A stretch of 64,000 nucleotides of DNA from Candidatus Pacebacteria bacterium GW2011_GWA1_46_10 (lineage in GTDB: Bacteria; Patescibacteriota; Microgenomatia; UBA1400; PJMF01). This document shows positions 19,009 through 64,000 of this stretch, one piece after another (the stretch's first letter is position 1; every line of letters starts with the position of its first letter). The notes under the pieces were generated by a model. That model saw only the letters and a program-made list of their open reading frames with translations. It searched no databases and had not been told where the DNA came from. A program made the position numbers and the translations under genes. Location: positions 361,114 to 425,113 of the forward strand of contig LCLP01000001.1 of NCBI GenBank assembly GCA_001002135.1, written 5' to 3'.

Positions 19009-20562
19009 TTACTCACTCTTCACTAAACTGGTGATATCCCAGACTTGCAAACACGGCGCCCCAGGGATACGGCAATACCAGGCGATGAGAAGAGAGTCCA
19101 AGTAATTTTCATTAAGCTTCATTTCTTCTCGGTGATCATTGACCACCAGCCAGACTTGTTCATAGTGCTGGGCTTTAGCGGTGAAACTGGCTGGAATAGC
19201 GACCACTGGTTGACCAATCCCCTCCACTAAAATGTTGGTCACATCTTGATTATGCAGATACATCAGCATCCCATCAGGCAGAGTGCCAAAAAACCCCTCG
19301 GTCGCCACCGCGATTGAATGAGCTTGTGATTTTTCGAGTAATAAGTCAGTGGCTTCTTTCACGCCAGTGCCTGATGACCACTCACGAACATATTGAGTCT
19401 GATCGATAGAGGTCAGGGGTAGGTAACTGGGATTTTGCCAAGAAATGAAGATAAACTCCAGAGCGGTGGAAAGCACAGCCGTAAGACCTAGCACAATGAA
19501 AGCGGAGCGCATGAAAAATGGGAACGGTTTTTTGATCAGTTTTTGGGTGTGGGCGAAAAACTGACCAAAAGTGAGTGAGGCCGAAACGGTCAGTGGGACA
19601 GCAGCCGGCAAGAAGTAACGTGGATAGATCGTTTTGCCTAGTAAAATAATCGGGGCCAGAAACCCGGCGGCCGACAATAATAAAAGGAGGTGTTTTCGTC
19701 GCCACCGGTCTTGAAAAAGACCACCCAGCGGCAACAGGAAAAACGGCCAGGTGAGATACAGCCCCAGCGCCGCGATCACTGCTCGACTGTTCACCATCAT
19801 CACGCGCCACAATCCCTGCTCCCTCAGTTCGCTTATGGAGTAAAGAAAATCGTTGCCGCGATTAAAAAGCTGACCAAAAGCCGGGTGGAGTTTGAGACTC
19901 AAAAAAACGCCAATGCCAATGAGCAGTGTCGCCGCACCCCAACTCAAAATTGTTGAAAGCGGGATCTTTTTGGTTCGCACCAGGAATGGAGCCAGTAGTA
20001 GGGTGGGTGTAAACAAGAGCGCAGGAATTTTAGTTAATAAGGCTAAACCGAAAAATAAGCCGGCGACGATAATTGATCGCCAAGCCAGTTTTTTGGCGTT
20101 GACGGTATTGAGAACATATAACCAAGACAATGATAAGAAGGCAGTCAACAAGCCATCCATCAATGCCATTCGGTGGTAAAAGTACCAAAATGGCAAAATC
20201 ATGGTGGCGGCCATGGCAATGCCCACAGCTAGGGTTTTGCCACCCAGTTTTTTGACGATTTGACCAGTCAGCCAGACCTGCCCAAAGCCGGCCGCCACCG
20301 AGATCAACCGGCCGGCTGCCAGCGGATCAGCTACCAGTTTGAGGGCGCCGACCGTTAACCAGACAAATAACGGCGTTTTACCGTCGTTGAGAGGAAAAAA
20401 GAGGTATTGTTGCCAGTCGTCGAGAATCAGTTGAGCCCAGCGAATGTAAATGGCTTCATCAGCAAATACCGGCAGTAGGGTGAGCGACGGCAAGTGAAGG
20501 AGGAGGTATCCTCCCAAGAGAGTCAGTAGGCCGATAGCGGAAAGTAGAGCGGTTTTTTTCAC
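19009..20562 (-). CDS. GT-C membrane glycosyltransferase, ArnT/PMT-like (GT39/GT83 family)
   Basis: Polytopic. First-loop motif FADEAIYIRWAQ is typical of polyprenol-phosphate-sugar-dependent GT-C enzymes. A GTG start at 20562 forms a GTGA overlap with the upstream stop; the track's 20649 start would overlap 91 nt. Confidence 0.6.
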   Translation of the reverse strand: MKKTALLSAIGLLTLLGGYLLLHLPSLTLLPVFADEAIYIRWAQLILDDWQQYLFFPLNDGKTPLFVWLTVGALKLVADPLAAGRLISVAAGFGQVWLTGQIVKKLGGKTLAVGIAMAATMILPFWYFYHRMALMDGLLTAFLSLSWLYVLNTVNAKKLAWRSIIVAGLFFGLALLTKIPALLFTPTLLLAPFLVRTKKIPLSTILSWGAATLLIGIGVFLSLKLHPAFGQLFNRGNDFLYSISELREQGLWRVMMVNSRAVIAALGLYLTWPFFLLPLGGLFQDRWRRKHLLLLLSAAGFLAPIILLGKTIYPRYFLPAAVPLTVSASLTFGQFFAHTQKLIKKPFPFFMRSAFIVLGLTAVLSTALEFIFISWQNPSYLPLTSIDQTQYVREWSSGTGVKEATDLLLEKSQAHSIAVATEGFFGTLPDGMLMYLHNQDVTNILVEGIGQPVVAIPASFTAKAQHYEQVWLVVNDHREEMKLNENYLDSLLIAWYCRIPGAPCLQVWDITSLVKSE

Positions 20563-21818
20563 TGCTCTCGATTGTAGCGCACTCTTTGGGTCAGAAACCA
20601 GAGCTGGCTCATCAGCCACAAACCAATCCCACCACCCCAAACGAGCCACTTTTGTTGGGTTAGTACCAACTGAGTGTACTCACCGACCCACAACCAAGGG
20701 ACGTAGCGGAGCATGGCGGTTAATGAAAAAGTAATGAGCCAGTGGCGCCACCATGGCTTTTTAATGAATGGCAGCCAGACCAGTGACCAGAGTAAATACC
20801 AGGGCAGAAACTGTTGTGAACGCAAAGTCAGCAAAGGGAGAAACAACAGGATTGATGACCACCAGCTTAAGCGCTCCCAGCTGAGAGAGTTTCTCAGTTT
20901 TGGTATCACCCGCCGCATCAACACTAAGAGCCAGACCGGGGTAATAACTAGAGTAGCGAATTTGATGAGAGTGGAAAAACCAAAAAGCAGGGAAGAGGCG
21001 AGTAGTTTTGGGGTAGTTTGTTTGGTTGGTTGGTCAAAGAGCAGCCACAGCGCTGCCAGGGCCGGCACCATCATCCAGAGATCGTTGTGCTGATTGGCGA
21101 TGACTTCGATAAAAAGGACAGGATTGAGGAAAACCAACCAGAAAGCGGGTAATGAGAGTGATTTTTTATTGATCGTCAGCGAGATTTTTTGCAGCACCCA
21201 AAATAGTAAAACAATACTTAAAACTGCCCAGCCGCGAAACAGCAACCAAGTCAGTAAGAACGTATTAAAACCAATGGCGTATGGAATCAGTGACAGCGCT
21301 GTCCAGCCATAGCCGTATGGGGCGGGGGTGTGGGTGTTATGCATAAACCGTGTCCAGTTATCGTGGGTGAAGTCGAGTGCCACCTGGACGTGAGGATTAG
21401 CTTGATAAACCAATACCATTTTGGCGTTGAAAATATAGTTAAAAACGTCATGAGAAAGCGCGTTGTAACTGAAAAACAACGGCGAGACGGCCAAAAGATA
21501 CGCAAACAAGAGCTTTTTGGAACTGAGCGACTGGGTGTGGGTAGTCAGTTTCAAACCAAAAAGGTATACAACAAAGAAACCGGTGATGAACAGGACATAA
21601 ACTTGAGTCAGCAGTTCACGCTGGTGAAGAAATGTTTGCCACATCCACTGTTGAAATCGCCAGTATGGCGGCCAACTAATTAAGACGAGATTGGGATCAG
21701 TCAAGGCATACGAAAAAATGGCGTAAAGTAACGAGAGTCCGAACAGAGCTCGCAAAAGCCAGCTGATTTTTTTTTCGCTTGACATATTCAATGGTATTTT
21801 CCCATCAGTCGAGCCCAA
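20559..21818 (-). CDS. polytopic membrane protein (about 12 TM, W/F/Y-rich), family not recognised; probably part of the glycosylation machinery
   Basis: 419 aa with many aromatic-rich TM helices. Sits inside the glycan operon. Family assignment uncertain. Confidence 0.4.
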   Translation of the reverse strand: MGSTDGKIPLNMSSEKKISWLLRALFGLSLLYAIFSYALTDPNLVLISWPPYWRFQQWMWQTFLHQRELLTQVYVLFITGFFVVYLFGLKLTTHTQSLSSKKLLFAYLLAVSPLFFSYNALSHDVFNYIFNAKMVLVYQANPHVQVALDFTHDNWTRFMHNTHTPAPYGYGWTALSLIPYAIGFNTFLLTWLLFRGWAVLSIVLLFWVLQKISLTINKKSLSLPAFWLVFLNPVLFIEVIANQHNDLWMMVPALAALWLLFDQPTKQTTPKLLASSLLFGFSTLIKFATLVITPVWLLVLMRRVIPKLRNSLSWERLSWWSSILLFLPLLTLRSQQFLPWYLLWSLVWLPFIKKPWWRHWLITFSLTAMLRYVPWLWVGEYTQLVLTQQKWLVWGGGIGLWLMSQLWFLTQRVRYNREQ

Positions 21819-22552
21819 CGGATGCGTAAAATATCAATAAACATTCTGACAGAATCTTTGAGTGGATTGACGCGGGTGGTGGCAAAATGGCGCCAGTGAA
21901 TCGGTACCTCTTTGTATGTAAAACCCAATTTTCTGGCTAGAAAAAGCAGTTCAACGTCAAAAGCACCGGTAAAAGCGTCCGGCTGACGGTTCTGGGGGCT
22001 GTAGATATACAGTTTGGGAAACAGCGTTTCGGTCGCTTGGGCTGAGAACATTTTAAAGCCGCACTGAGTGTCTTGCACTCCTCGCACGGCCATGATTTGG
22101 ACAAGTAAATTAAAACCTCTGCCCATCAGGTGACGGTAGAAGGGTTCTTTGTCTCGTTTGGCGCCGGCGATTTCTCGCGAACCAAATATAACCTGGTATT
22201 GATCAGTGTATGGTAATAGTTTCGTTACTTCTTGGATCGGTGTTGACTGATCAAAGTCGGTGTACAACCGCCACTGACCATGGGCGGCCAACATGCCGGC
22301 CGTGACGGCTGGCCCTTTGCCAGCGTGTGAGTTGGTTAAGACAGTTACCTCCGGGTGTTGTTTGGCAAATTGCTGCAGGCTTTCGACCGTCCCATCTGTA
22401 CTGCCGTCATCACTCAAAATCAGTTCCCAAGTGTATGGTTGTTGTTTGAGATACGAAATCAGTTCCTTCAGTACTCCTCGCTCAATATTATGCTGCTCGT
22501 TATAAGAAGGCACGATGACTGATAAAAAAGGGGAATGATCAGCGTCAGGCAT
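21788..22552 (-). CDS. glycosyltransferase family 2
   Basis: LSVIVPSYNEQHNIE...SDDGSTDGT GT-A fold N-terminus; DxD-type region. Confidence 0.75.
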   Translation of the reverse strand: MPDADHSPFLSVIVPSYNEQHNIERGVLKELISYLKQQPYTWELILSDDGSTDGTVESLQQFAKQHPEVTVLTNSHAGKGPAVTAGMLAAHGQWRLYTDFDQSTPIQEVTKLLPYTDQYQVIFGSREIAGAKRDKEPFYRHLMGRGFNLLVQIMAVRGVQDTQCGFKMFSAQATETLFPKLYIYSPQNRQPDAFTGAFDVELLFLARKLGFTYKEVPIHWRHFATTRVNPLKDSVRMFIDILRIRWARLMGKYH

Positions 22553-22557: not shown

Positions 22558-24144
22558 TTATTCTAGCGCTTGGTCAGTCTCTTGGGTAGTTCTACGCAGC
22601 ACTGTGATAGTTGGGCCGTTTTCGAGAGTAAAGACTTCGGCCGGCTGCTTATTGGGAAAGACCACGATTTCATAGATGGGAAGATCAATGACTTTGGGTG
22701 ATTGTTTTTCTTCGTCAATGATAAAAAGCGTGGTTACTTCATTGCGCTGCTCTGGTGGCACCGGTCGGGTGTGGCCGGTGGTCAGAAAATAGCGGTAGTT
22801 TTGACCGTCAAGATCTTTACTGCCGGACAGGAGCACTAAGTTGTATTTTTCACCTGATTCCACCCGTTTGAGGATTTCCTGACTGGTGTGTTCAATGTCT
22901 TTGATGGTCCAGCCTGTATCTTTAAAAATGAGTTGTGGCCAGTTAAACCGCAGAAAGTAGGCAGTAAAAATAATGAAGGCAACAGCAGCCAGCCACCGCG
23001 GTTTGAGTCGGCTAAAAACATACCCATACACCAGGGCGGTGATCGGGAATAAGTAGGCAATGTAGTGATCAAAGATGGAGTGTTGGTAAAAAGCCGTACC
23101 GACAATGCCAAAACCAAGGTAACTGAGTAAGACGAATTCTTTGGCCAGCGGTTGTTTTTGCTCATGTTTGTTGAGTATGGTTACACAGAAGAGAATGACG
23201 ACAGCCAGTAAAAGTGTTTGATTCAGCACCCGATTTTTACCGATCATGTATTCAAACAGAATGTGTAGGCCGCGTCCCTCGGTTTCTTGCAGTGTTTCAG
23301 TCAACTGTCTGGTGACGCTGGTCTCCCTCAGAGCGGTGAAATTTTCGTTTCCGGTGAACATGGCCTGAAAAGCTCGGAAGTTGACCCCTTGATGTTTAAG
23401 GTCAAATAACACCAGCGGCACGAGCGACAAGAGAAAAATGACCAAACCTATCAGACTGGGTAGCAGGATTGCCTTGAGTTTCCCGGTTGAAAAATGTGTT
23501 CTCAAGCTGATTAACCAAATCAGCCCTGCCGCTGGGAGGGCCAGTAGAGTGAGGTAGTGGAGTTGCAGCAGAATGCTGAAACACCCCGCCACCGCGACCC
23601 AGTATTTAGGGTGTTTTTGCCAGGCAAGGTAGGTGGTGTAGATCATCAGCAGTGAGACGAATGGGGCTGGATTAGGGTTCCAACTGTAGCGGGTGGCATG
23701 CACAATGGTGGCGGCAAAGGTGTAGAAAAAAGTGGCGATCAAGGCCCCGTTCTCGCCGATTAACTTTTTGCCGAGGCTGTACATCAGATAGACAGTGATC
23801 ACTCCTAGAGCAGCCACCGCGTAAGCTGGTCCGACAGGACTAGGATAAGTGAGCCAGAGAAAAGGGAGCATAAAATAGTAGTAGAGTGGTCCCAAGTAGA
23901 GGTTGCCGACACTGGTGACGGGACCGATGAAGACCAGGTCTTTTTGGCGGAAGATATCAGCCACAATGATGGCATCTCGACCTTGGTCACCCAAAAATAG
24001 GACGGTGTTGGTCAAGTTATAAAACCGCAGGTAGACCGCTGCCGCCAACAACAAACCGAGAATAATCAATTTCCCCTGGTTTATTCTCTTCATGGCGTTT
24101 CCGCGTTTACTTTTTCTTTCGCCAAATGAAAGTGGTGTAAGCAA
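22558..24144 (-). CDS. GT-C membrane glycosyltransferase, ArnT/PMT-like
   Basis: 528 aa with about 11 N-terminal TM helices and GDQGRDAIIVADI in the first loop, plus a C-terminal soluble domain. Confidence 0.55.
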   Translation of the reverse strand: MLTPLSFGERKSKRGNAMKRINQGKLIILGLLLAAAVYLRFYNLTNTVLFLGDQGRDAIIVADIFRQKDLVFIGPVTSVGNLYLGPLYYYFMLPFLWLTYPSPVGPAYAVAALGVITVYLMYSLGKKLIGENGALIATFFYTFAATIVHATRYSWNPNPAPFVSLLMIYTTYLAWQKHPKYWVAVAGCFSILLQLHYLTLLALPAAGLIWLISLRTHFSTGKLKAILLPSLIGLVIFLLSLVPLVLFDLKHQGVNFRAFQAMFTGNENFTALRETSVTRQLTETLQETEGRGLHILFEYMIGKNRVLNQTLLLAVVILFCVTILNKHEQKQPLAKEFVLLSYLGFGIVGTAFYQHSIFDHYIAYLFPITALVYGYVFSRLKPRWLAAVAFIIFTAYFLRFNWPQLIFKDTGWTIKDIEHTSQEILKRVESGEKYNLVLLSGSKDLDGQNYRYFLTTGHTRPVPPEQRNEVTTLFIIDEEKQSPKVIDLPIYEIVVFPNKQPAEVFTLENGPTITVLRRTTQETDQALE

Positions 24145-25282
24145 AAAAATTCCAAAACATGCCGATCAAGATTCCCACTACCGCGTACATCATACCGGTG
24201 TCGACTCCAATGGCAATTATTGGCAGGGTGAACAGCGGGAACAAACCAATGAATCGCTCACCGACAAAGGCGATCGACTGTTGGATTAAGATTGAGCCAG
24301 CCGAGGTGAGATTAAACTGAATAAATTTGCTGGGATATTGAATGGGCCTGAGCTTGCGGTCTGAGAATGTCCAGATATTGCTTAAAATGAAATTACTGAG
24401 GATCGCGCACTCAATGGCCAAAAAAAACGCCAGCTGAAACGGAGCGATCTGACGCCAGAGTTGAAGAGTGGTCAGTTGCACTAAAGCGCCGATGCCACCC
24501 ACCACCACGAACTTGAAAACTCGATTTTTAAAAAGATCACTGAGGCGTAATTTCATAATATAGATCAGGTTATTTTTAATGTATTCCGGTCCCATTTTAC
24601 TTTTGCCGTGGGTGCGGTCTTTAAAATGAAATGGCACCTCAACGACTTTAAAACCTTTTTGTAAAGCCGCGTGTAAAAAGCCTATTTGAAAAGTATAGCC
24701 GGAAAACCGCTCACTTGTCAGCTCTGAATGCACGGCCTGGTACACTTTTCGCGTGATCGCCCTAAAGCCACCAGTCCAATCTCTAATACTAAAGTTCAAC
24801 ATGGCGGTGGCGATAAACAGATTGCCCATCACGCTTAAAAATTTGCGATGAAGTCCCCAATCGCTCGGGATGCTGCCGCCGGGAATATAACGTGAGCCAA
24901 GCACCAGGTCATACCCTTGGTCAATTTTTTGCAGAAATAACGGAATTTTAGTGGGATCGTGTGAGAGGTCGGCGTCGAACTCGAAGATCACATCAGCTTT
25001 AAGTTGATCAAAAGCATAGTCCATACCCTTGAGATAGGCTCTGCCCAGACCGGCCTTGGTTTTGTTGAGTAGTAAGTGAAGGTTTTTGTAACGTTTCTGC
25101 AGTTGTTTAACCAGCTTATACGTTCTATCGGGTGAGGTATCGTCAACGATTAAAACCCCACAGCGCCAGTCACGAATAGTGTCAAGTACGCCAAATACTT
25201 GATATAAAAGTCGATCAATATTTTCCCGCTCGTTGTAGGTTGGAATAATGACAATGGCGCTTTTGGGAGAGGAGACTGCCAT
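24107..25282 (-). CDS. polyprenol-phosphate glycosyltransferase (GT2; Ppm1/DPM1/GtrB-like) fused to a C-terminal GtrA-like flippase domain
   Basis: N-terminus IVIIPTYNERENIDRL...VDDTSPDRT and DxD FDADLSHDP, typical of polyprenyl-P-sugar synthases. The C-terminal ~120 aa form four TM helices (GtrA-like). Confidence 0.7.
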   Translation of the reverse strand: MAVSSPKSAIVIIPTYNERENIDRLLYQVFGVLDTIRDWRCGVLIVDDTSPDRTYKLVKQLQKRYKNLHLLLNKTKAGLGRAYLKGMDYAFDQLKADVIFEFDADLSHDPTKIPLFLQKIDQGYDLVLGSRYIPGGSIPSDWGLHRKFLSVMGNLFIATAMLNFSIRDWTGGFRAITRKVYQAVHSELTSERFSGYTFQIGFLHAALQKGFKVVEVPFHFKDRTHGKSKMGPEYIKNNLIYIMKLRLSDLFKNRVFKFVVVGGIGALVQLTTLQLWRQIAPFQLAFFLAIECAILSNFILSNIWTFSDRKLRPIQYPSKFIQFNLTSAGSILIQQSIAFVGERFIGLFPLFTLPIIAIGVDTGMMYAVVGILIGMFWNFFAYTTFIWRKKK

Positions 25283-25295: not shown

Positions 25296-26276
25296 TTATT
25301 GGCCGTTGCTTTCGCTTTCGTACTGCAACTCAGCCTCGACCATCAGTTTTACCAGGCCTTCAAAGTCAACCGAGGGTTTCCAGCCAAGTTTTTCGCGCGC
25401 CTTAGTGGCATCGCCGCGCAGCATGTCAACTTCGGCCGGGCGATCAAAAATAGGATTGTGTTTATAGACTTTTTTCCAGTCGGTCAGACCAGCCGCGCTG
25501 CAAGCCAATTGGAGGAATTCTTTGACTGAATGAGTTTCGCCGGTGGCGACTACAAAGTCTTCCGGCTGATTTTGTTGAAGCATTAACCACATGGCCTCAA
25601 CGTAATCCTTGGCATAGCCCCAGTCGCGCTTGGCTTCCAAGTTACCCAGTTCAACGTACTTTTGCTTCCCGAGTTTGATGCGTGCTACCCCGTTGGAGAT
25701 TTTACGAGTGACGAACTCCAGGCCACGGCGAGGCGATTCATGGTTAAACAAGATGCCTGAAACAGCAAAAAGATGGTATGACTCGCGGTAATTGACGGTA
25801 ATCCAGTGACCGTACACTTTTGCCACTCCGTAAGGGGAGCGGGGATAGAACGGGGTAGTTTCTTTTTGGGGGGTTTCTTGGACCTTGCCAAACATTTCGC
25901 TGGAACTAGCCTGATAGAACTTAGCTCCAGGACAGGCTAAACGCATCGCTTCCAACACGCGGGTGACACCCAAACCGGTGAATTCACCAGTCAAAACCGG
26001 TTGTTCCCAAGAAGCTTGGACAAATGACTGAGCAGCCAGATTGTAAATCTCATCTGGTTGAATCTCTTTAAGAGCAAAGGTCAGTGAGTTTTGATCCACC
26101 AAATCGCCGGATATCAGGGTAAGGTGGGGGTTGTGGACAATCTGTTTGATGCGATCAAAGTTTTGGGTGCTGGTACGGCGGGTTAAACCATAAACATGGT
26201 AGCCCTTGTCGAGTAAAAGCTCGGCTAAGTACGAACCGTCCTGACCAGTAATGCCGGTAATAAACGCCTTTTTCAT
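25296..26276 (-). CDS. gmd: GDP-mannose 4,6-dehydratase
   Basis: [35 protein letters not shown]...NFDRI is collinear with Gmd. Start ATG 26276 forms an ATGA overlap with the rmd stop; Shine-Dalgarno sequence GAAGGA. Confidence 0.9.
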
Positions 26277-33717: not shown

Positions 33718-33723
33718 AGGGGT

Positions 33724-41286: not shown

Positions 41287-41292
41287 AGGCTC

Positions 41293-56004: not shown

Positions 56005-56795
56005 TGATTTCGGTTGTGTTAGCCACCTATAACGAAGCAGCTAATTTGGCTCGCTGTTTGGTGTCGGTCGACTCCTTTGCCGATGAAATTATTGTGGTGG
56101 ATGGCAGTTCAACTGATGACACTCGCCGCATTGCTAAAAAATTTGGCGCCAAAGTAATCAAGACAACGAATAAATTAAACTTTCATATCAACAAACAAAT
56201 GGCGATGGACCGGGCAAAAGGCGAGTTGGTGTTGCAGATTGACGCTGATGAAGTGGTTGATGAGGAGCTGGCGCGGTTTATCCGATCGGTGGAGAAACAA
56301 CGCCGAAAGTCGTCGTTGGCGACGGCGGCTTGGTGGATCAGGCGAAAAAATCTTTTTCTTGGGCGCTGGTTGACGAAAGGAGGTCAGTATCCTGATCCAG
56401 TAATCAGACTCTATATCAATGGACGAGCCAAGTTACCCCAAGCTGATGTGCACGAGCAAATGGCAGTGGACGGGCCGCTTGGCTGGGCTAACGGTCACCT
56501 GCAACACTATGCCAACCCGACTTTTACCGATTACGTGCGCAAGTTTAATACCTATACTTCTTTTCGAGCACAGTTGTGGGCTAAGGAGGGCTGGCGATTA
56601 TCACTATGGCGGTCGGTCTACTACTTACTGTGGAAGCCAATCGAGATCTTTCTTTCCCTTTACGTGCGTCATAAAGGATTCTCTGATGGGTACCCAGGTT
56701 TTGTGTTTGCTCTAATGAGTGGTCTTCACTACCCAGTGGCTTACCTTAAATGGTGGGAAATAAAACAAGGAAAAAGGCGTGAAAGTACGTATTAA
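56004..56795 (+). CDS. glycosyltransferase family 2
   Basis: MISVVLATYNEAANLARCL...VVDGSSTDDT...IDADE. ATG 56004 forms a TAATG overlap with the upstream stop; Shine-Dalgarno sequence GAGGAG. Confidence 0.75.
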   Translation: MISVVLATYNEAANLARCLVSVDSFADEIIVVDGSSTDDTRRIAKKFGAKVIKTTNKLNFHINKQMAMDRAKGELVLQIDADEVVDEELARFIRSVEKQRRKSSLATAAWWIRRKNLFLGRWLTKGGQYPDPVIRLYINGRAKLPQADVHEQMAVDGPLGWANGHLQHYANPTFTDYVRKFNTYTSFRAQLWAKEGWRLSLWRSVYYLLWKPIEIFLSLYVRHKGFSDGYPGFVFALMSGLHYPVAYLKWWEIKQGKRRESTY

Positions 56796-57816
56796 CGTAA
56801 CACCGCTCTCCTCGGGCCACGCCATCAGGGGGGTGGGTATGTATACTCGTTTTCTCAGTGAGGCTTTGGAGCGCCAAAAAGGTATTGAGATCTTTCACTC
56901 CGGTTTGGAGAACCAACCAACTAAGGTGGACGTTGTTCACTATCCTTTTTTTGACCTTTTTTTTCCAACACTGCCAATTCTCAAAGGGACGAGCACCGCG
57001 GTCACGATTCACGACGTTATTCCGTTGTTGTTTGCTGATCACTATCCGGTAGGAAAAAAAGGTACTTTAGGTTTAGCCCACCAAAAACTCGCTCTCAAAA
57101 CTGTGGCAGCAGTGATTACCGATTCCGAAGTTTCCAAACGCGATATTATCACTCACCTTGGAGTGCCAGCGGAAAAAATACATGTGGTTTATTTAGCTGC
57201 TAACCCGTTTTTACACCAAATCAGCGGGAAAGCCTTGATCGCTGCTTCGCGCAAGCTTCATCTTCCTAAGCGCTATATCTTGTACGTTGGAGACATCAAC
57301 TACAACAAAAATCTGCCGCAACTCATTAAAGCACTGAAATTTTTGCCGCCTGAACTCAAATTGATCTGTGTTGGCAAGAATTTTACGCCGCAGCCGATTC
57401 CTGAGTGGCAAGCCATCGAGGCTCAAGTAGCTTTGAGCAATGTCGGCAAACAGATCGTGTTTATGCCCCAAGTTTTGAGCGATGATTATGAGGCGCTCTC
57501 GGCTGTTTACTCTGGGGCGGTCGCCTATGTTCAGCCATCGCTCTATGAAGGTTTTGGTTTACCGGTGCTGGAAGCCATGCGCTGCGGCACACCGGTGGTG
57601 GCGGCCCGAAACTCTTCTTTGCAGGAAATTGGTGATGAGGCAGTGCTTTTTACTGGCAATACAGCCGAAGAATTAGCTGGCAGTATTGAAGAATTATTAA
57701 GTTTTTCCAACCACCAGCGCGTCCAACTCATCAAAAAGGCTTCTCATTGGGAGCAACAATTTACTTGGGATAAGACGGCTCAGCAAACGATTGAAGTGTA
57801 TAAAAAAATGCTATGA
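56779..57816 (+). CDS. glycosyltransferase family 4 (GT-B fold)
   Basis: 345 aa. C-terminal EGFGLPVLEAMRCGTPVV GT4 signature. Confidence 0.7.
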   Translation: MKVRINVTPLSSGHAIRGVGMYTRFLSEALERQKGIEIFHSGLENQPTKVDVVHYPFFDLFFPTLPILKGTSTAVTIHDVIPLLFADHYPVGKKGTLGLAHQKLALKTVAAVITDSEVSKRDIITHLGVPAEKIHVVYLAANPFLHQISGKALIAASRKLHLPKRYILYVGDINYNKNLPQLIKALKFLPPELKLICVGKNFTPQPIPEWQAIEAQVALSNVGKQIVFMPQVLSDDYEALSAVYSGAVAYVQPSLYEGFGLPVLEAMRCGTPVVAARNSSLQEIGDEAVLFTGNTAEELAGSIEELLSFSNHQRVQLIKKASHWEQQFTWDKTAQQTIEVYKKML

Positions 57817-59447
57817 AAAAGAGGTTGTTCTTTATTATTGCTGTTTTGTTACCGCTACTAGCGCTGACTCGACCATACCTTCGAGCAGGTGTGCCATACA
57901 CTCATGACGGTGAAAACCATTTAGCTCGTTTTGCCAACTATAAAGTGGCGGTCAGAGAGGGCCAAGTTCCCCCTCGCTTTGCCCCGAATTTAATGAATCA
58001 TTACGGCTATCCAGTATTCAACTATAACTATCCACTGCTTAATATGCTGTCACTGCCACTCAGTATCATTGGCATCCACTACGAACTCACTTTTAAGTTT
58101 CTAATGATTGGTGGTTTAGTGCTTGGAGCTTGGGGGATTACTCGTTGGTTGGCGGTGAGTGGTTTTTCTCGCCGTGCCAAGTTATTTGCGGTTGGCACTT
58201 ATATGCTGGCGCCGTTTACCGTGAACCTTATTTTTGTGCGCGGTAATATTGGGGAGGTTTGGGCCTTGGCGCTTTTCCCGTGGCTACTGTGGTTTTCCAA
58301 GATGATTAAACAACGAACAAGAGTGAGTTGGTTGGTCAGTGTGTCACTGATTACAGCTTTTTTGCTGTCGCACAACGTCTCGGTACTTTTTGGTGGAGTG
58401 TTGTGGTTTCTTTATACTCTCAAAGAATTCGGCAAGCAGAAAGCATTATGGAAAGTCTGGTTGGGTCCGGTAGTAATCTCAGTGTTACTCAGTCTGTGGT
58501 TTTGGTTGCCGGCTGTGGCTGAAAAAGGGTTTATCGTGGTGGATGATGCCAACTTGAGTTCGCAGTTTGCCACCCATTTTGTTCAGCCGTTACAGCTTTT
58601 GGCCTCACCCCTGCGGTTTGGTTATTCGTTTGAAACAGCGGTTGACACCATTAGTTTTTCGGTTGGGGCAATTGGTTTTGCCAGTTTAGTACTGATGACG
58701 GTATGGTTACTGCGATTGCGCAAGACGGACCGCCGTCACCTTGATCGGTACCGATTATGGTTTTTTGTCATTGTTTGCTGGGGATTGCTCTTTTTGCAGA
58801 CTGACTTTTCGTACCAAGTGTGGCGCTTCCTGCCACTCGTGGCATTCATTCAGTTTCCATGGCGTCTGACATTATTTTTTGTGGTGTTAGTTTTACCGCT
58901 GGTAGCGACACTGTTTACTCACTTAAAAAAAGTCCGTTGGCTATTGTGGGCACTCTTTTTCGGGCAGCTGATGGTGTTGTGGCGCTTACAACCAATCGCT
59001 TTTTTGCATCAGACGCCAGAACAATATGATCTTTTTCCACAAAGCACGAGTACTCTCAACGAAAATTTGCCTAAAGGATTTACGTATTTACTGATTGGTG
59101 ATTGGCAACCGGCCCCAAGCGCACTGGTGGGTGAATTTACAGCCAACGTGGCTGATTGGACAGGGTCTCGTCGGTACTACCACCTCAATGTAACTCAAGA
59201 TGCCTTGGTGGTGGAACCAACGATGTATTTTCCGGGTTGGGAAACGACGATCAACGGGGAGTTGATAGAGTATGTTGATGTGAGTGAAGCTGAGGGACGA
59301 CTAGGTTACCGCTTGCCAGCAGGTGAGTATGAGGTCGAAACCCGTTTTACCCAAAATACTTGGCCAAGAATGGTGGGCAACAGTCTCAGTGTGCTGGCGG
59401 TAGCAATCTGGGGGTGGCTGGTATGGCGAGAAAAACAAGTCTCCTAA
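57813..59447 (+). CDS. large polytopic membrane protein with C-terminal domain (GT-C-like, uncharacterised family); paralog of 33724..35502
   Basis: YTHDGENHLARFANYKVAVREGQVPPRFAPNLMNHYGYPVFNYNYPLLNML shares the H-x(n)-R...GYG/YGYP-F-FY-PL pattern with the 33724 gene. At least 10 TM helices. Confidence 0.45.
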   Translation: MKKRLFFIIAVLLPLLALTRPYLRAGVPYTHDGENHLARFANYKVAVREGQVPPRFAPNLMNHYGYPVFNYNYPLLNMLSLPLSIIGIHYELTFKFLMIGGLVLGAWGITRWLAVSGFSRRAKLFAVGTYMLAPFTVNLIFVRGNIGEVWALALFPWLLWFSKMIKQRTRVSWLVSVSLITAFLLSHNVSVLFGGVLWFLYTLKEFGKQKALWKVWLGPVVISVLLSLWFWLPAVAEKGFIVVDDANLSSQFATHFVQPLQLLASPLRFGYSFETAVDTISFSVGAIGFASLVLMTVWLLRLRKTDRRHLDRYRLWFFVIVCWGLLFLQTDFSYQVWRFLPLVAFIQFPWRLTLFFVVLVLPLVATLFTHLKKVRWLLWALFFGQLMVLWRLQPIAFLHQTPEQYDLFPQSTSTLNENLPKGFTYLLIGDWQPAPSALVGEFTANVADWTGSRRYYHLNVTQDALVVEPTMYFPGWETTINGELIEYVDVSEAEGRLGYRLPAGEYEVETRFTQNTWPRMVGNSLSVLAVAIWGWLVWREKQVS

Positions 59448-60571
59448 ACACGCTGTTGATTACCGTCATAGTCTGGCGGTTAGCTTTGCTGGGGTTGGGC
59501 GCAGTGGGTGATCACTTTTTGCCGTATAACCCTTCTTTTCCTTACGCGCGAGAGTTGTTAGCGAAGCTGAACCTACCTCGTTGGCTCTATTCCTGGGGAA
59601 GTTTTGATGGTGTGCACTACCTAGGGATTGCCCAAAACGGTTATACAAACACGGCGTTTATTCAAGCTTTTTTTCCGGTTTTTCCCTTGCTGTTGCGAGT
59701 CTTTGCCAATCCTTTACTCTCAGGTTTGGTGCTCAATGTACTGCTCATTGTATGCTTGGCGTTAGTGTGGCATCAGTTAGTACTGCTGGATCAGACCCAA
59801 AAACAAGCTCGATGGTCGCTCCTGGCGCTGTTGCTGTTTCCGACCAGTTTCTTTTTTGGGGCACTCTATACTGAAACCTTGTTTTTACTACTCGTTATCG
59901 GCTCACTGCTGATGGCTCGTCGTAAACAGTGGCAGTGGGCCGGCAGTTTGGCCGCCGTCGCTTCAGGCACCCGTATTATTGGTATTTTTCTCTTACCAAC
60001 ATTACTGGTTGAGCTTTGGTGGCAGCGCAGGCCAAGCTCGGTTCAGCAGTTTTTGACCAAAAATACGCGCGAGTTCAAGTATATTGCTTTGTCGCTCTTG
60101 GGTTTGGCAGTGTATATGTTTTATCTCTGGCTCACCTTTGCTGATCCACTCTATTTTCTGCACGTGCAGAGTGAATTTGGCAGTGGCAGGCAGGAGTCAC
60201 TGATACTTTTTCCGCAAGTAATCTGGCGGTATGTGAAGATTCTCTGGACGGCACGGCCTTTTGATTGGAAATATTTTGCCTATGCGCAAGAGTTTATTTT
60301 GTCGCTAGGGGTGTTGAGCGGACTTTTGATCTGGTTTAAAAAAATTCGTCCTTCATATCTGATATTTTCACTGTTGGCGTTTTTCTTGCCGACGGTAACA
60401 GGTACCCTGACCAGTATGCCACGCTATGTGCTGATGTGTTTTCCGATTTTTCTTTTACTTGGCGAGCTTTTCGCCAAGAAACCGCTGTGGCGCGCTTTTC
60501 TCCTGACAGCCTCCGTAATTTTGCTTATAATCAACACCGTCCTGTTTATTCAGGGATATTGGGTAGCGTAA
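59423..60571 (+). CDS. PIG-V/Gpi18-like (GT76-type) mannosyltransferase-family membrane protein
   Basis: WGSFDGVHYLGIAQNGYTNTAFIQAFFPVFP resembles the W-D-x-x-H/W-F-L-x-IA-x-x-GY loop motif of PF04188 proteins. About 8 TM helices. ATG 59423 is preferred over the track's 59360. Confidence 0.45.
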   Translation: MARKTSLLNTLLITVIVWRLALLGLGAVGDHFLPYNPSFPYARELLAKLNLPRWLYSWGSFDGVHYLGIAQNGYTNTAFIQAFFPVFPLLLRVFANPLLSGLVLNVLLIVCLALVWHQLVLLDQTQKQARWSLLALLLFPTSFFFGALYTETLFLLLVIGSLLMARRKQWQWAGSLAAVASGTRIIGIFLLPTLLVELWWQRRPSSVQQFLTKNTREFKYIALSLLGLAVYMFYLWLTFADPLYFLHVQSEFGSGRQESLILFPQVIWRYVKILWTARPFDWKYFAYAQEFILSLGVLSGLLIWFKKIRPSYLIFSLLAFFLPTVTGTLTSMPRYVLMCFPIFLLLGELFAKKPLWRAFLLTASVILLIINTVLFIQGYWVA

Positions 60572-60575: not shown

Positions 60576-61496
60576 ATGAAAATTCTCGTCACTGGCGGTG
60601 CTGGCTTTATTGGTTCTCATGTGGCCGATGCGTACATCAAACTTGGTCATGAAGTGGTTATAGTGGACAATCTTTCCACCGGCAAGAAAGAGTTTGTCAA
60701 TCCGAAAGCAGAATTTGTTGAAGCCGACATTGCCGACCGAGAAACAATTCAAAGTATTGTCAGCGTGCAGCGACCGGAAGTGATTAATCATCACGCCGCG
60801 CATATTCAAGTGGGCCACTCGGTGGAAGATCCCCAGTTTGATGCTACAGCCAATATTTTGGGCACTTTGAACATCATGGAAGTTGCCCGGCAAATCCCGG
60901 TTAAAAAAGTCATTTTCGCTGCGACCGGGGGAGCGATGTATGGCAATAAGCCCACCCCATTTGATGAGTCGATGAAAGAGGAGCCACTCTCACCCTATGG
61001 TATTTCCAAGCGGGCGGCTGAACTCTATTTCAATTATTACTACGAATTGTACAAAATTCCCTATGTTTCCCTGCGTTACTCCAATGTTTATGGCCCGCGC
61101 CAAAATCCGCATGGGGAGTCGGGAGTAGTGGCTATTTTCGCTGAGGCAATTATGGCAGGGAAGACGCCCGTGATTAATGGTGATGGCACTCACACTAGAG
61201 ATTATGTCTATGTCAGTGACGTAGTGGGGGCTAACGTGCTGGCACTAACCACTGATTTTGTCGGCGAACTGAATATTGGTACCAAAACAGAAATTAGTAC
61301 GAATGAAGTGTTTGATAAAGTGACCACGGAGTTTGGCAAACACCTGGAGCGCCAATACGGCTCTCCCCGCCCGGGGGAGCAGGTAACCAGCTCTTTGGAT
61401 TACTCAAAGGCCAAGCAGAAACTTGGTTGGGAACCAAAAGTTACTTTTGATGAAGGGGTACAACTGGTTGCTAATTGGTATAAAAATCGGCGTTGA
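60576..61496 (+). CDS. NAD-dependent nucleotide-sugar epimerase (GalE/UDP-hexose 4-epimerase-like)
   Basis: MKILVTGGAGFIGSHV Rossmann motif, an SPYGISKRAAE (YxxxK) catalytic motif, and NVYGPRQ. Confidence 0.75.
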   Translation: MKILVTGGAGFIGSHVADAYIKLGHEVVIVDNLSTGKKEFVNPKAEFVEADIADRETIQSIVSVQRPEVINHHAAHIQVGHSVEDPQFDATANILGTLNIMEVARQIPVKKVIFAATGGAMYGNKPTPFDESMKEEPLSPYGISKRAAELYFNYYYELYKIPYVSLRYSNVYGPRQNPHGESGVVAIFAEAIMAGKTPVINGDGTHTRDYVYVSDVVGANVLALTTDFVGELNIGTKTEISTNEVFDKVTTEFGKHLERQYGSPRPGEQVTSSLDYSKAKQKLGWEPKVTFDEGVQLVANWYKNRR

Positions 61497-61523: not shown

Positions 61524-62207
61524 ATGGCGGCCAAATCCATACTTTTCTCTAAGACCTGGATTGTCATTCCTGGTTTTAACGAAGCCAAGTATTTAGCCAC
61601 TGTCCTCAAGAAAACCCTCAAGCAAACGCCGCGGATTATTTATGTCGATGATGGTTCGCATGATCACTCGGCTCAAATCGCTCAAAAATATCTTGAACAC
61701 GTCATCATCCACGAAGTCAATCTTGGGAAAGGCGCGGCGCTCAAGACTGGCTGCGACTATGCTTTTAACTTCCTCAAGGCTCAAGCAGTCATTCTAATGG
61801 ACGCGGACGACCAGCATAATCCAGCCGAGATTCCACTGTTTGTCCAACAACTCAGGAAAGGCAGTCAAGTAGTATTGGGTGCCCGGTCGCTGTTTTCCAA
61901 AATGCCCTTAGTCCGTAAAATCGGTAATGCTTTCACCTCGGCGGTGATGCTAATCTTGTTTTGGCGTTATATTCCGGATATTTTGTCCGGCTATAAGGCT
62001 TTTACGAGGCGCGCGTACCGCAAACTTTACTGGGAGGCGACCGACTACAGTGTGGAACTGGAGATCGCTGCCAAAATCGCCATGAATCGGTTACAATTCT
62101 CCTTAGTGAGCATCAAAACGATTTATCACGATCTGGATCGAGGGATGAGTATTATTGATGCGATCAAAGTAGCACTAAAAATCGTGAGTCTCAGATTGGG
62201 ATTATGA
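61524..62207 (+). CDS. polyprenol-phosphate glycosyltransferase (GT2, GtrB/ArnC-like)
   Basis: IVIPGFNEAKYLATVLKKTL...YVDDGSHDHS...MDADDQHNP; a short (227 aa) GtrB-type GT2. Confidence 0.7.
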   Translation: MAAKSILFSKTWIVIPGFNEAKYLATVLKKTLKQTPRIIYVDDGSHDHSAQIAQKYLEHVIIHEVNLGKGAALKTGCDYAFNFLKAQAVILMDADDQHNPAEIPLFVQQLRKGSQVVLGARSLFSKMPLVRKIGNAFTSAVMLILFWRYIPDILSGYKAFTRRAYRKLYWEATDYSVELEIAAKIAMNRLQFSLVSIKTIYHDLDRGMSIIDAIKVALKIVSLRLGL

Positions 62208-62536
62208 GTATTTTTCAAATCATTGCCGTTTTTTTTGCGCTGCTGATGCTCTATATCACTCGCGTGCACACCTTGCGTCAGCGTTTCTCCATGACCGAAA
62301 CCTTTTTTTGGTACTCGTTGTGGTTAGTGTTCATAGTGGTGGCGGTTTTCCCGGATTTACTGCGCGGCATCAGTGACTTATTGCACTTCTCCCGCGTGTT
62401 TGACTTGTTGGTGGTAGGAGCGTTAATGGTGTTAACGGTGGTGGTGGTGCTTAATTATTTCCAGCAGCGAGCCAATGGTCGTAAGTGGGAAGAATTTATT
62501 CGTCAGCGCGCGATCGACCACACCAAAAAGAAGTAA
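62204..62536 (+). CDS. DUF2304-like small membrane protein (partner of the GT2 just upstream)
   Basis: 110 aa with three TM helices (MSIFQIIAVFFALLMLYITRV...). ATGA overlap with the preceding GT2. Confidence 0.45.
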   Translation: MSIFQIIAVFFALLMLYITRVHTLRQRFSMTETFFWYSLWLVFIVVAVFPDLLRGISDLLHFSRVFDLLVVGALMVLTVVVVLNYFQQRANGRKWEEFIRQRAIDHTKKK

Positions 62537-63344: not shown

Positions 63345-63396
63345 TGCGAAGCATTGTAGGCACGTATAATGAGGTGATTTGATAGTGAGTAAAACA

Positions 63397-64000
63397 ATGA
63401 TCACTTTTTTTAAAAAATTTTTTCTGAGTCCAGTCATATGGATTTTGCTGGCGTCAGTGTTGTTTATGTCGCCGATGTTGTTATACCCAACCTTTAATTA
63501 TATTGATGATGGACAAACTTTACTGACCGGCAAAACTTTATTAGCGACAAATGATTGGTCGATTTGGCAGAAAAGTTTGTTTGAGTATGAAAACGGCCGT
63601 TTACGGCCAGCGTATCAATTGTACTTGCTGTTGATGTACCTTTTATTTGATGTTCGTCCGCTGGGGTATTGGTTGTCTCAGACTTTAGTCTTGGCTCTGA
63701 CTTTACTTGGTTTGCGGGCGCTGATTAAGCAACTTACCCAAGCAAAGGAGTGGGTGATTGGTCTTGCTTTGACCATATTTTTACTCTTGCCCGCGACCAT
63801 TGAAAATCTCTACCGGTTGGGTACAGCGGAGCCTCGCCAAACTCTCTTTCTGGTTTGGTTTTTGGTTTGGTTGAGTAAACTCAACCTGAAGCGCTTTAAC
63901 TGGCAAAGTCTAGCGCTGGGGAATATTCTTTTACTCTTGGCTTTGGCGACCAAGGAAACTTCTGTTTTGGTCTGGCCGATGATCGCGATTTTTTTTGTTT
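63397..64000 (+). CDS. GT-C-like polytopic membrane glycosyltransferase, 3' partial at the window edge
   Basis: MITFFKKFFLSPVIWILLASVLF...DDGQTLLTGKTLLATNDWSIWQ... An N-terminal TM helix plus a D-rich loop is followed by further TM helices. The ORF runs off the window. Confidence 0.4.
   Translation, partial: MITFFKKFFLSPVIWILLASVLFMSPMLLYPTFNYIDDGQTLLTGKTLLATNDWSIWQKSLFEYENGRLRPAYQLYLLLMYLLFDVRPLGYWLSQTLVLALTLLGLRALIKQLTQAKEWVIGLALTIFLLLPATIENLYRLGTAEPRQTLFLVWFLVWLSKLNLKRFNWQSLALGNILLLLALATKETSVLVWPMIAIFFV

Follow-up and report, generated by a model that had tools for sequence, protein, structure and literature searches.

A stretch of 64,000 nucleotides (hereafter the window) from contig LCLP01000001.1 of Candidatus Pacebacteria bacterium GW2011_GWA1_46_10 contains, from position 19009 to its end, a locus dominated by glycan genes, in which 14 genes for polytopic glycosyltransferases of the GT-C type, or for proteins resembling them, occupy 46% of 45 kb (19009-64000). 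We propose, with our confidence about evenly divided, that the locus encodes a pathway in which cytoplasmic enzymes build a lipid-linked glycan, Wzx flips it, dedicated GT-C enzymes using polyprenyl-phosphate sugars extend and decorate it outside the membrane, and a LytR-CpsA-Psr (LCP) protein attaches it to peptidoglycan. The locus may be the main cell-envelope glycan factory of this Pacebacteria-type bacterium of the Candidate Phyla Radiation (CPR), operating as a fixed assembly line and not as a set of interchangeable decorators; the chances for and against this seem to us equal.

According to the Pfam and NCBIfam scans, 38 genes lie between position 19009 and the window end (genes are designated below by the first position of their open reading frame, ORF). 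Besides Wzx, 15 polytopic membrane proteins are encoded there, together with nine GT2 enzymes (21788, 24107, 41251, 43957, 44871, 46822, 55983, 61524 and 62475), two GT4 enzymes (45697 and 56779) and six sugar-nucleotide enzymes, namely, Gmd, RmlB, a Ugd-like dehydrogenase, an RmlD-like reductase and two further short-chain dehydrogenases/reductases (SDR; 26273 and 60576). Only trmD, surE and argS are unrelated to glycans, in agreement with the initial annotation, which had called almost every gene from 19.0 kb onward glycan-related. Its ORFs were all found where it had placed them; its minimum of 11 polytopic GT-C enzymes was exceeded, its approximate ten GT2 enzymes came to nine, and the two GT4 enzymes, the Wzx-like flippase, the LCP protein and the nucleotide-sugar genes that it listed are present by Pfam or NCBIfam. 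Neighbouring genes overlap or are only a few bases apart throughout the locus, which points to an operon structure. The left edge, also placed correctly, is real at approximately 19.0 kb: upstream of 18.3 kb there are ordinary genes (frr, an M50 protease, secDF, a CCA-adding enzyme, recJ, thioredoxins, an MscS-like channel and a response regulator), and a histidine kinase gene at 18301-18957 still belongs to the same minus-strand operon. On the right, genes of like kinds continue for at least 9 kb beyond the window end, 9.3 kb of them being visible in contig L031.

The identification of the membrane proteins as GT-C enzymes is supported by evidence that differs from protein to protein (Pfam matches, predicted folds, paralogy, profile comparisons and homologues). 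The Pfam gathering cut-offs were 26.1 bits for PMT_2 (PF13231), 26.4 for PTPS_related (PF10131), 22.4 for PF04188, 24.6 for LCP (PF03816), 26.1 for GtrA (PF04138) and 25.5 for DUF2304 (PF10066). Six of the membrane proteins pass: 19009, 22558, 38569, 52778 and 54442 by PMT_2, and 57813 by PTPS_related. The PMT_2 cut-off is not reached by 47677 (21.8 bits) or 39857 (16.1 bits), and 42208 and 49275 give no match. Nevertheless, 42208, 47677, 49275, 52778 and 54442 form one family (family A, 25-31% identity over the full length), and its members that fail the PMT_2 cut-off are full-length paralogues of members that pass it. A search with 49275 yielded more than 1000 homologues of family A, mostly unnamed or designated 'GT39' or 'ArnT-like', in Pacebacteria, Woesebacteria and other Patescibacteria.

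AlphaFold2 (AF2) models cover two of the 14 GT-C candidates, 49275 and 36998. The model of 49275 has a mean predicted local distance difference test score (pLDDT) of 93.5 and a predicted template-modelling score (pTM) of 0.93. According to Foldseek, its top matches are the ArnT structures 5ezm and 5f15 (E 4e-9, TM 0.51-0.59, 13-14% identity), followed by AglB/STT3, ALG12/9/3, Pmt4, Emb, AftD and ALG6, as well as PIG-U, a GT-C-like subunit of the glycosylphosphatidylinositol transamidase; no fold other than GT-C occurs in the first 25 ranks. EmbC, AftA, AftB, AftD and PimE are among the structural matches of the two models. Both models are all-helical membrane bundles, and a crude Kyte-Doolittle hydropathy scan, the source of the transmembrane (TM) counts given here, shows 5-13 hydrophobic segments in all 15 candidates. 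Acidic residues of loop 1 are kept in every family (DE or EE in family A, 19009, 38569 and 36998; D..D in 22558; HD in family B, which comprises 33688 and 57813), and in both models the acidic motif opens the first extracytoplasmic helix after TM1. The conserved acids of family A are E35/E36, D42, D52 and D68; residues E36, D68, K70, R93, H323, H377 and R380 are invariant. Thus, the GT-C fold and the loop-1 acids, on which the initial annotation had staked its assignment beforehand, were found in both models and in all families, respectively.

Profile comparison in hhalign, run without secondary-structure scoring and with small alignments for some families, joins the profiles of 19009, 22558, 39857, 36998 and family A at 92-99%, as against no more than 1% for Wzx, the negative control. 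The 19009 family is linked to family A at 99.0% (D64/E65 invariant in 43 homologues), the 22558 family to family A at 99.1% (D53 invariant in 46 homologues), and the families of 39857 and 59360 to that of 19009 at 97.6% and 82%, respectively. As for 33688 and 57813, they form a second paralogous family (27% identity, hhalign 99.8%) for which hhalign gives no link to the PMT_2-type families; their putative GT-C status is drawn from their Pfam family, PTPS_related presumably belonging to the GT-C clan of Pfam. The description 'paralogous' in the initial annotation therefore fits the five members of family A and the pair 33688/57813, and not the other GT-Cs, which are separate families related only at the profile or fold level.

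The label 'ArnT/PMT-type' likewise holds at the fold level but not among PDB sequences, where the family-A profile (40 members) returned nothing, with no ArnT match even at E <= 1 and none to PMT. No ArnT model of NCBIfam matches family A, and searches of PDB sequences with family A, 20559 and 59360 gave no significant match. Family A is only partly captured by PMT_2, and the families of 36998 and 20559 have no curated model; as judged from sequence, the system is outside the ArnT, Emb/Aft and eukaryotic PMT families. The comparison shows that sequence libraries (Pfam, NCBIfam and PDB sequences) miss much GT-C diversity that fold comparison recovers.

Comparison with related genomes and metagenome contigs (L-numbers) argues for dedicated roles of the paralogues. 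The block 41251-62207, including argS, is collinear and has one-to-one orthologues in L003, L004, L015 and L018 and, in part, in L001, L002, L012 and L019. Its order is GT2, GT-C, GT2, GT2, GT4, GT2, GT-C, GT-C, argS, GT-C, GT-C, GT2, GT4, GT-C, PIG-V-like gene, epimerase, GT2. Orthologues share 56-79% identity for the cytoplasmic glycosyltransferases and 47-60% for the GT-Cs, and paralogues only 25-31%. Since the one-to-one orthologues keep a higher identity than the paralogues, the family-A paralogues are, by this sequence criterion, ancient and each retained for its own job. The initial annotation had envisaged 'combinatorial' glycosylation; the comparative data do not bear this out, because each paralogue keeps a one-to-one orthologue in the same position, as expected for fixed, dedicated steps, and 'sequential and dedicated' would be the better term.

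At least 45 independent metagenome contigs carry the eight-gene cassette 19009-28529 (from 28529 downward: ugd, SDR, gmd, GT2/GtrA, GT-C, GT2, 20559, GT-C) in the same gene order, the lowest identities being 34%. In L052, module 1, which contains this cassette, is immediately adjacent to Wzx and to the beginning of module 2 (the genes from 41251 onward), and protein identity to the window is 40-66% outside gmd. The arginyl-tRNA synthetase of the window has its best relatives (58-65% identity) in metagenome-assembled genomes (MAGs) of Patescibacteria. These gene-order and identity data indicate that the locus is a conserved lineage feature of Pacebacteria-like Patescibacteria, with at least two independently conserved modules. 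In addition, several MAGs carrying the same glycan locus and a Patescibacteria-type arginyl-tRNA synthetase (L002, L003, L006, L008-L010, L016, L017 and L019) are labelled 'uncultured Pseudomonadales' or 'Gammaproteobacteria'; by these genes, their taxonomy appears to be mislabelled.

In the proposed mechanism, six sugar-nucleotide enzymes would supply activated sugars, including 6-deoxyhexoses and, probably, a uronic acid. Gmd and the SDR overlapping it suggest a GDP-6-deoxyhexose, RmlB and the RmlD-like reductase, with neither RmlA nor RmlC in the window, suggest a dTDP-6-deoxyhexose, and the Ugd-like enzyme suggests the uronic acid. The soluble GT2 and GT4 enzymes 41251, 43957, 44871, 45697, 46822, 55983, 56779 and 62475 would assemble an oligosaccharide on polyprenyl-diphosphate at the cytoplasmic face, with the priming phosphoglycosyl transferase presumably encoded outside the window, and Wzx (35499) would carry the intermediate to the outer face. 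Going by their closest family matches (ArnC, PgfS, PpgS and GacI-like), 21788, 24107 and 61524 may charge polyprenyl monophosphate with single sugars; the fourth candidate synthase, a GT2 with two C-terminal TM segments encoded just downstream of the window (L031 13450-14391), is proposed by its GtrB/ArnC architecture only. The GtrA domain of 24107 would flip the donors, and the GacJ-like DUF2304 protein would help 61524. Outside the membrane, at least 13 GT-Cs are predicted to use the lipid-phosphate sugars, with each enzyme responsible for elongation or branching at one particular position of the glycan; the observations behind this step are the fold, the conserved acidic residues and the membrane topology, from which its chemistry is extrapolated. 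Finally, LCP 32497 would move the finished polymer onto peptidoglycan.

The eight soluble glycosyltransferases together with Wzx and LCP point to a polymer that is made on a diphosphate carrier, flipped across the membrane and then joined to peptidoglycan. Because three or four donor synthases face at least 13 conserved GT-Cs, the latter are probably responsible for much of the polymer, built outside the membrane, and not for one side chain only. Transfer from polyprenol-phosphate donors outside the membrane, suggested in the initial annotation, is a sensible mechanism given the candidate synthases and the GtrA domain. The same annotation had named either a surface protein or a glycopolymer as the acceptor; LCP and Wzx make a wall-linked glycopolymer the likelier of the two.

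Several points weigh against this pathway. The window yielded neither a priming phosphoglycosyl transferase nor a Wzy polymerase nor a chain-length regulator, and no Pfam match there is of the Wzy, O-antigen ligase, WecA/MraY or WbaP type; 36998, the obvious Wzy candidate beside Wzx, is a GT-C by its fold. All assignments of GT2s as lipid-phosphate synthases come from matches under the NCBIfam equivalog cut-offs. The genes of the window name no sugar, linkage or acceptor, and 20559 and 63397 are not securely GT-C. An LCP gene beside glycan genes is suggestive of wall attachment but no proof of it. PMT-like GT-Cs of Actinobacteria and TfpW of Pseudomonas glycosylate proteins, so that a protein acceptor is possible. 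Lastly, modules 1 and 2 are conserved separately, in different contig sets, and could serve different products side by side.

If a protein were the acceptor, the PMT_2/ArnT-like GT-Cs would add sugars to Ser/Thr residues of secreted proteins encoded elsewhere (type IV pilins, S-layer or others), and the paralogues would correspond to different acceptor proteins or to successive sugars of an O-glycan. The nearest named Pfam families, PMT_2 and PMT, are indeed protein O-mannosyltransferases, Pmt4 is among the structural matches, and the best NCBIfam match of both 24107 and 21788 is PgfS, from a streptococcal protein-glycosylation system. Arabinosylation of pilin by the GT-C enzyme TfpW is a precedent. 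Pilin glycosylation has also been predicted, though not tested, in Saccharibacteria (PMC11623550). We nevertheless consider protein O-glycosylation unlikely, as the window has no Ser/Thr-rich or pilin-like ORF (in none do Ser/Thr make up at least 50% of any 30-residue stretch, which bears out the initial statement that no acceptor gene is obvious), and family A is structurally closest to ArnT, with its lipid acceptor, and not to PMT. Furthermore, Wzx, LCP and eight soluble glycosyltransferases would be superfluous for simple O-mannosylation, and the bacterial PMT systems known to us have one GT-C and not more than 13. A membrane-anchored lipoglycan seems to us more improbable still. Here, the GT-Cs would elongate or branch a glycolipid resembling lipomannan/lipoarabinomannan (LM/LAM) or a glycosylated polymer resembling lipoteichoic acid, and LCP would serve another polymer. 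Mycobacterial LM/LAM is the work of a large number of GT-Cs, including PimE, which is represented among the structural matches, and GT-Cs of the YfhO/PTPS_related type, the kind to which 33688 and 57813 belong, reportedly glycosylate lipoteichoic acid in Firmicutes; however, the LCP gene is inside the locus, and Pfam scans of the window reveal no LtaS-like, PimA/B-like or phosphatidylinositol-related gene. The absence of de novo lipid synthesis in CPR bacteria is neutral in this respect.

There may also be no single product, the locus being a cluster of independent systems in a small, gene-dense genome: a three-component cassette for decoration (19009-28529), a group of 6-deoxyhexose and LCP genes, a variable insert of GT-Cs, and module 2. 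The independent conservation of the two modules in different contig sets, the variability of the insert 36998-39857, missing in L001, and the presence of trmD, surE and argS between and within the modules are all consistent with this. On the other side are the junction of module 1 with Wzx and module 2 in L052, a lineage only 40-66% identical outside gmd, the three to four donor synthases available to at least 13 GT-Cs, which imply shared donors, and the single Wzx and single LCP of the locus. On balance, such a composite origin is also improbable in our judgement, to about the same degree as the lipoglycan.

Among known systems, the best analogy to the proposed wall-linked glycopolymer pathway appears to be the assembly of arabinogalactan and LM/LAM in mycobacteria and other Corynebacteriales (EmbA/B/C, AftA-D, PimE and MptA-C), where many fixed-step GT-Cs, supplied by few polyprenyl-phosphate donors (decaprenyl-P-Araf, polyprenyl-P-Man and, through PpgS-Rv3632, polyprenyl-P-GalNAc, i.e., arabinofuranose, mannose and N-acetylgalactosamine), build a wall polymer outside the membrane that is attached by an LCP ligase. 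A PpgS-like GT2 beside a DUF2304 partner is present in both cases, here as 61524 and 62204. In contrast, the window GT-Cs have no sequence-level kinship to Emb or Aft, the window contains no genes for decaprenyl-phosphoryl-arabinose synthesis (no match to a UbiA-type phosphoribosyltransferase or DprE1/2), and the organism belongs to another phylum and has a tiny genome. In mycobacteria the GT-C genes are scattered over the chromosome, whereas here they are packed in one locus.

The other close working analogy may be the GacI/J/K/L side-chain system of streptococcal rhamnose polysaccharides. Like other three-component systems (GtrA/GtrB/Gtr*, CsbB/GtcA/YfhO and GT136 pentofuranose), it unites a GT2 synthase of lipid-phosphate sugars with a GtrA or Wzx flippase and a GT-C, for all of which the locus has counterparts, in the case of the synthase candidates only; a GacJ-type DUF2304 helper, a link to 6-deoxyhexose (rml-type) genes and an LCP ligase are further likenesses. 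However, these systems add one side-chain sugar with one GT-C each and are often accessory or serotype-variable, unlike the at least 13 GT-Cs with one-to-one orthologues considered here. Extracytoplasmic transfer by GT-Cs has been described for the Gtr, YfhO, GacL, GT136 and mycobacterial systems (PMC11127046).

As for ArnT (GT83), it is the closest solved structure to family A, and the dehydrogenase, SDR and ArnC-like GT2 genes upstream of PMT_2-type GT-Cs (27234-22558) recall arn and rgt operons. The latter encode the RgtA-D/RgtE galacturonosyl system of Rhizobium. Identity to ArnT is nevertheless only 13-14%, and the window has no ArnA, aminotransferase, formyltransferase, lipid A or lipopolysaccharide genes. 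The protein O-mannosyltransferases (GT39; PMT1/2/4 and actinobacterial Pmt) resemble the window proteins in the PMT_2/PMT matches, the DE-type motif after TM1 and the Pmt4 and Pmt1/2 structural matches; they differ in that the window shows no MIR domain match or visible acceptor protein, that many paralogues stand in place of one enzyme, and that ArnT scores better structurally. No account of such multi-GT-C loci in CPR/Patescibacteria was found in the literature, a weak negative, as most subscription journals were outside the coverage, and one that accords with the initial view of the pathway as uncharacterised.

A bolder version of the proposal, which we regard as doubtful though worth stating, is that the principal envelope glycopolymer is built almost wholly outside the membrane by a conserved, mycobacteria-like line of at least 14 dedicated GT-Cs, at least three of whose families are uncovered by curated models (family A in part, 36998 and 20559), and that one donor is perhaps a polyprenyl-phosphate 6-deoxyhexose from the gmd-SDR-GT2/GtrA cassette. 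We know of no precedent for a polyprenyl-phosphate 6-deoxyhexose as a lipid-linked sugar.

Table 1. Features of the glycan locus and its left border in the window. Bits are scores against the models named; TM, transmembrane; A1, family-A member used as reference.
Coordinates	Strand	Assignment	Evidence and remarks
18301..18957	-	Soluble histidine-kinase core, 218 residues	Pfam HisKA + HATPase_c; lacks TM and sensor domains; ends the minus-strand module-1 operon
19009..20649	-	GT-C, PMT_2 type	PF13231 39.7 bits; loop-1 motif ADEAIY (D64, E65)
20559..21818	-	Polytopic membrane protein with at least 6 hydrophobic segments, conserved	108 metagenome relatives; missing from the initial annotation
21788..22552	-	GT2, candidate polyprenyl-phosphate-sugar synthase	PF00535 84.5 bits; closest models PgfS, ArnC
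22558..24144	-	GT-C, PMT_2 type	PF13231 31.0 bits; loop-1 motif GDQGRD (D53, D57)
24107..25282	-	GT2 fused to GtrA-type membrane domain	PF00535 93.9 bits; PF04138 GtrA_DPMS_TM 59.5 bits (residues 257-387)
25296..26306	-	GDP-mannose 4,6-dehydratase Gmd	TIGR01472 442 bits (cut-off 415)
26273..27232	-	SDR epimerase or reductase	Pfam Epimerase + GDP_Man_Dehyd; 34-nt overlap with gmd
27234..28529	-	Nucleotide-sugar 6-dehydrogenase, UDP-glucose dehydrogenase-like (Ugd-like)	TIGR03026 426 bits (cut-off 189.8)
29613..30488	-	RmlD-like 4-ketoreductase	PF04321 151.9 bits; TIGR01214 139.9 bits, under cut-off 224
31303..32325	-	dTDP-glucose 4,6-dehydratase RmlB	TIGR01181 475.7 bits (cut-off 365.1)
32497..33651	-	LCP protein	PF03816 97.3 bits; one N-terminal TM segment, residues 40-58 (hydropathy)
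33688..35502	+	GT-C-like membrane protein, YfhO/PTPS_related type (family B)	YfhO 26.6 and PTPS_related 21.6 bits, both under cut-offs; loop-1 motif VHDYTH
35499..37001	+	Wzx/MOP-type flippase	PF13440 141.6 bits; 11 hydrophobic segments
36998..38569	+	GT-C of a family without Pfam model	Loop-1 motif FIDEQEN (D32, E33); AF2 pLDDT 96.4, structural matches only GT-C
38569..39915	+	GT-C, PMT_2 type, 13 hydrophobic segments	PF13231 36.5 bits; loop-1 motif ADES; no large C-terminal domain
39857..41026	-	Short GT-C, PMT_2-like	PMT_2 only ~16 bits; invariant D73
41251..42201	+	GT2, soluble; first gene of module 2	PF00535 59.8 bits; orthologues in L001, L012, L015, L019
42208..43941	+	Family-A GT-C, paralogue 1	No Pfam match; hhalign 100% to A1; loop-1 motif RDEA
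43957..44874	+	GT2	Pfam; cytoplasmic
44871..45692	+	GT2	Pfam; cytoplasmic
45697..46818	+	GT4	Pfam; cytoplasmic
46822..47676	+	GT2	Pfam; cytoplasmic
47677..49278	+	Family-A GT-C, paralogue 2	PMT_2 under cut-off; paralogy; loop-1 motif WDEA
49275..50984	+	Family-A GT-C, paralogue 3	AF2 + Foldseek; loop-1 motif YWEEVALGYDA; ~100-residue alpha/beta C-terminal domain
51002..52753	+	Arginyl-tRNA synthetase argS	Pfam; housekeeping gene inside operon
52778..54445	+	Family-A GT-C, paralogue 4	PF13231 30.9 bits; paralogy; loop-1 motif WDET
54442..56004	+	Family-A GT-C, paralogue 5	PF13231 37.9 bits; paralogy; loop-1 motif RDEA
55983..56795	+	GT2	Pfam; cytoplasmic
56779..57816	+	GT4	Pfam; cytoplasmic
57813..59447	+	GT-C, PTPS_related/YfhO type (family B)	PF10131 43.1 bits; loop-1 motif THDGENH (D32/E34)
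59360..60571	+	PIG-V-like GT-C candidate	Motif FDGVHYLGIAQNGY; D83
60576..61496	+	GalE-like nucleotide-sugar 4-epimerase	Pfam Epimerase 204 bits; TIGR01179 190.6 bits, under cut-off 262
61524..62207	+	GT2, PpgS/GacI-like	Best NCBIfam matches PpgS 94.8 and AglJ 84.4 bits, under cut-offs
62204..62536	+	DUF2304 small membrane protein, 110 residues, 3 TM (GacJ/Rv3632-like)	PF10066 57 bits; 4-nt overlap with 61524 stop codon
62475..63344	+	GT2	PF00535 52.4 bits
63397..64000	+	GT-C-like polytopic protein, N-terminal portion (520 aa in full)	Loop-1 motif IDDGQ; hhalign 70% to family A

The starts of ORFs 19009, 39857, 59360 and 55983 are uncertain. Because ORF 19009 overlaps 20559 by 91 nt, its true start is probably downstream of the listed GTG codon. 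The product of 39857 probably has 377 aa, with a start 12 codons inside the listed ORF, and the 59360 gene is probably located at 59423-60571 (382 aa).

Within the minus-strand cassette (Table 1), orthologues of 20559 are invariably located between those of 21788 and 19009 in the metagenome loci. The 20559 family has invariant D124, H244-N245-D246 and R333 and an acidic residue throughout at position 153; D124 comes after the third hydrophobic segment, which makes its equivalence to the loop-1 acid uncertain. None of 44 members has a Pfam match, no NCBIfam or PDB-sequence match was obtained, and the best hhalign result is 53%, to the 36998 family. From these features, 20559 is a candidate GT-C, polymerase or ligase. 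For 21788, PgfS is the best and ArnC the third-best NCBIfam match, both being lipid-phosphate sugar synthases; 24107 is closest to PgfS, ArnC, AglJ, dolichyl-P-hexose transferase and PpgS. All these matches are under the cut-offs, and 24107 can be put forward as a candidate for both a polyprenyl-phosphate-sugar synthase and a flippase.

Within the cassette, gmd is by far the most conserved gene (70-87% identity, compared with 34-74% for its neighbours). Its strict linkage to 24107, the GT2-GtrA fusion gene, hints at a lipid-linked 6-deoxyhexose donor. The adjoining SDR gene 26273, for which no NCBIfam model reaches its cut-off, likely encodes a GDP-4-keto-6-deoxymannose reductase or epimerase. 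It was first suspected that 25296 was a UDP-GlcA decarboxylase; this was ruled out, the protein being a bona fide Gmd. An arn-like pathway, with 25296 and 26273 as enzymes of the UDP-xylose or Ara4N type, was likewise ruled out, since 25296 passes the Gmd equivalog cut-off. Against the TuaD model, 27234 scores 429 bits, under the equivalog cut-off. The LCP protein 32497 is a candidate ligase joining the glycopolymer to peptidoglycan. Embedded among these genes are trmD (28597-29274, plus strand) and a gene of the SurE nucleotidase family (30499-31284, minus strand), the latter between the RmlB and RmlD-like genes.

The histidine kinase gene at the left border converges on the gene of an OmpR-type response regulator (17638-18309, plus strand), with a 9-nt overlap. 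Its orthologue comes after the 19009 orthologue in 23 of 62 metagenome loci, and the kinase may be a dedicated regulator of the minus-strand cassette.

Between Wzx and module 2, the genes 36998, 38569 and 39857 (36998-41026) look like a variable GT-C insert in an otherwise conserved locus, because in L001, where the three are missing, Wzx directly abuts the 41251 orthologue. The 36998 protein has an identical counterpart, UY13_C0002G0279, in Candidatus Pacebacteria bacterium GW2011_GWB1_47_8 (a CPR genome from groundwater); among 5.8 billion proteins, 36998 has only three close homologues and 744 distant ones. Its position directly after Wzx had made it a candidate Wzy polymerase, which was ruled out by the AF2 model, matching GT-C structures only, and by the invariant DE after TM1. 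Approximately 10 of 59 homologues of 39857 have a PF13231 (PMT_2) or PF02366 (PMT) match.

In module 2, the genes at 43957-47676 are the best conserved: the three GT2 enzymes share 66-79% and the GT4 enzyme 56-60% identity with their orthologues in L001, L003, L004, L015 and L018, and the four share 44-55% with those in L012 and L019. They presumably build the lipid-linked oligosaccharide. Orthologues of 55983 and 56779 are 62-69% identical. The family-A member 42208 shares 25-29% identity over its full length with the other members. The argS gene has the same position among the family-A GT-C genes in at least eight related genomes (L001-L004, L012, L015, L018 and L019); an essential gene within the operon suggests constitutive expression. 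The description of 59360 as PIG-V-like in the initial annotation agrees with the motif FDGVHYLGIAQNGY. The protein has no PF04188 match of its own and only faint matches to ALG10 and AZOBR_p60025, and among its orthologues that of L018 alone passes (23.4 bits), that of L015 scoring 15.8 bits and those of L003 and L004 nothing.

By its NCBIfam matches, 61524 is a candidate polyprenyl-phosphate-HexNAc (N-acetylhexosamine) or hexose synthase, and the adjoining DUF2304 protein 62204 is presumed, by analogy, to be its activator. GacJ is a DUF2304 protein, and Rv3632 stimulates PpgS (bioRxiv 10.1101/180810). The full length of 63397, which has no Pfam match, was read from L031 (10923-12485). According to this contig, the remainder of 63397 is followed by an epimerase, the GtrB/ArnC-type GT2, a methyltransferase, a paralogue of 63397 (36% identity, 4 kb downstream and outside the window) and two pairs of polytopic proteins. 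These tandem unannotated pairs (L031 15064-20870, i.e., +3.5 to +9.3 kb from the window end) are of 364/339 aa, with a faint Wzy_C_2 match (E 0.077), and of 455/450+ aa, with the common motif 'WDxLAxYDFRAR'; they may represent additional GT-Cs or else supply the polymerase or ligase that was not found.

The window as a whole is coding-dense, with a G+C content of approximately 47%. GC skew is positive in all 2-kb bins from 1 to 64000, regardless of the coding strand; since no bin departs from this, the window lies on one replichore, without origin or terminus. The sole tRNA gene, tRNA-Gln(CTG) at 17497-17568 (minus strand), is located just upstream of the response regulator gene. The MscS-type channel (16149-17417, minus strand) has an N-terminal Ion_trans (voltage-gated-like) domain, and the ORF next to it, 15462-16094, has a weak match to the MscS C-terminal domain. 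This ORF and two other unannotated ones, 22-726 and 8892-9476, are coiled-coil- or secreted helical-like.

The class of mechanism proposed here is known; its scale, the fixed multi-GT-C organisation, the lineage and several of the enzyme families are new. The genome of the organism, of which the longest contig found has 574 kb, is presumably about 1 Mb. A conserved locus with nearly half of its DNA devoted to GT-Cs and an essential argS embedded in it, in a genome so small, suggests that the glycan product has a central role in the cell instead of being an optional decoration. A large share of bacterial diversity belongs to the CPR/Patescibacteria, which live attached to other cells and whose surface glycans are, experimentally, almost a blank. 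Glycosylation in this group has been called 'unexplored' (PMC11623550). From the locus come a defined set of genes that could be reconstituted heterologously, high-confidence models of two GT-C families lacking curated descriptions, and a parallel, open to testing, with the assembly of the mycobacterial wall, in which GT-C enzymes serve as drug targets. If the glycopolymer were indeed built almost wholly outside the membrane, this would represent a new envelope architecture in a major but poorly known branch of bacteria and would bear on the contact between episymbionts and their hosts.

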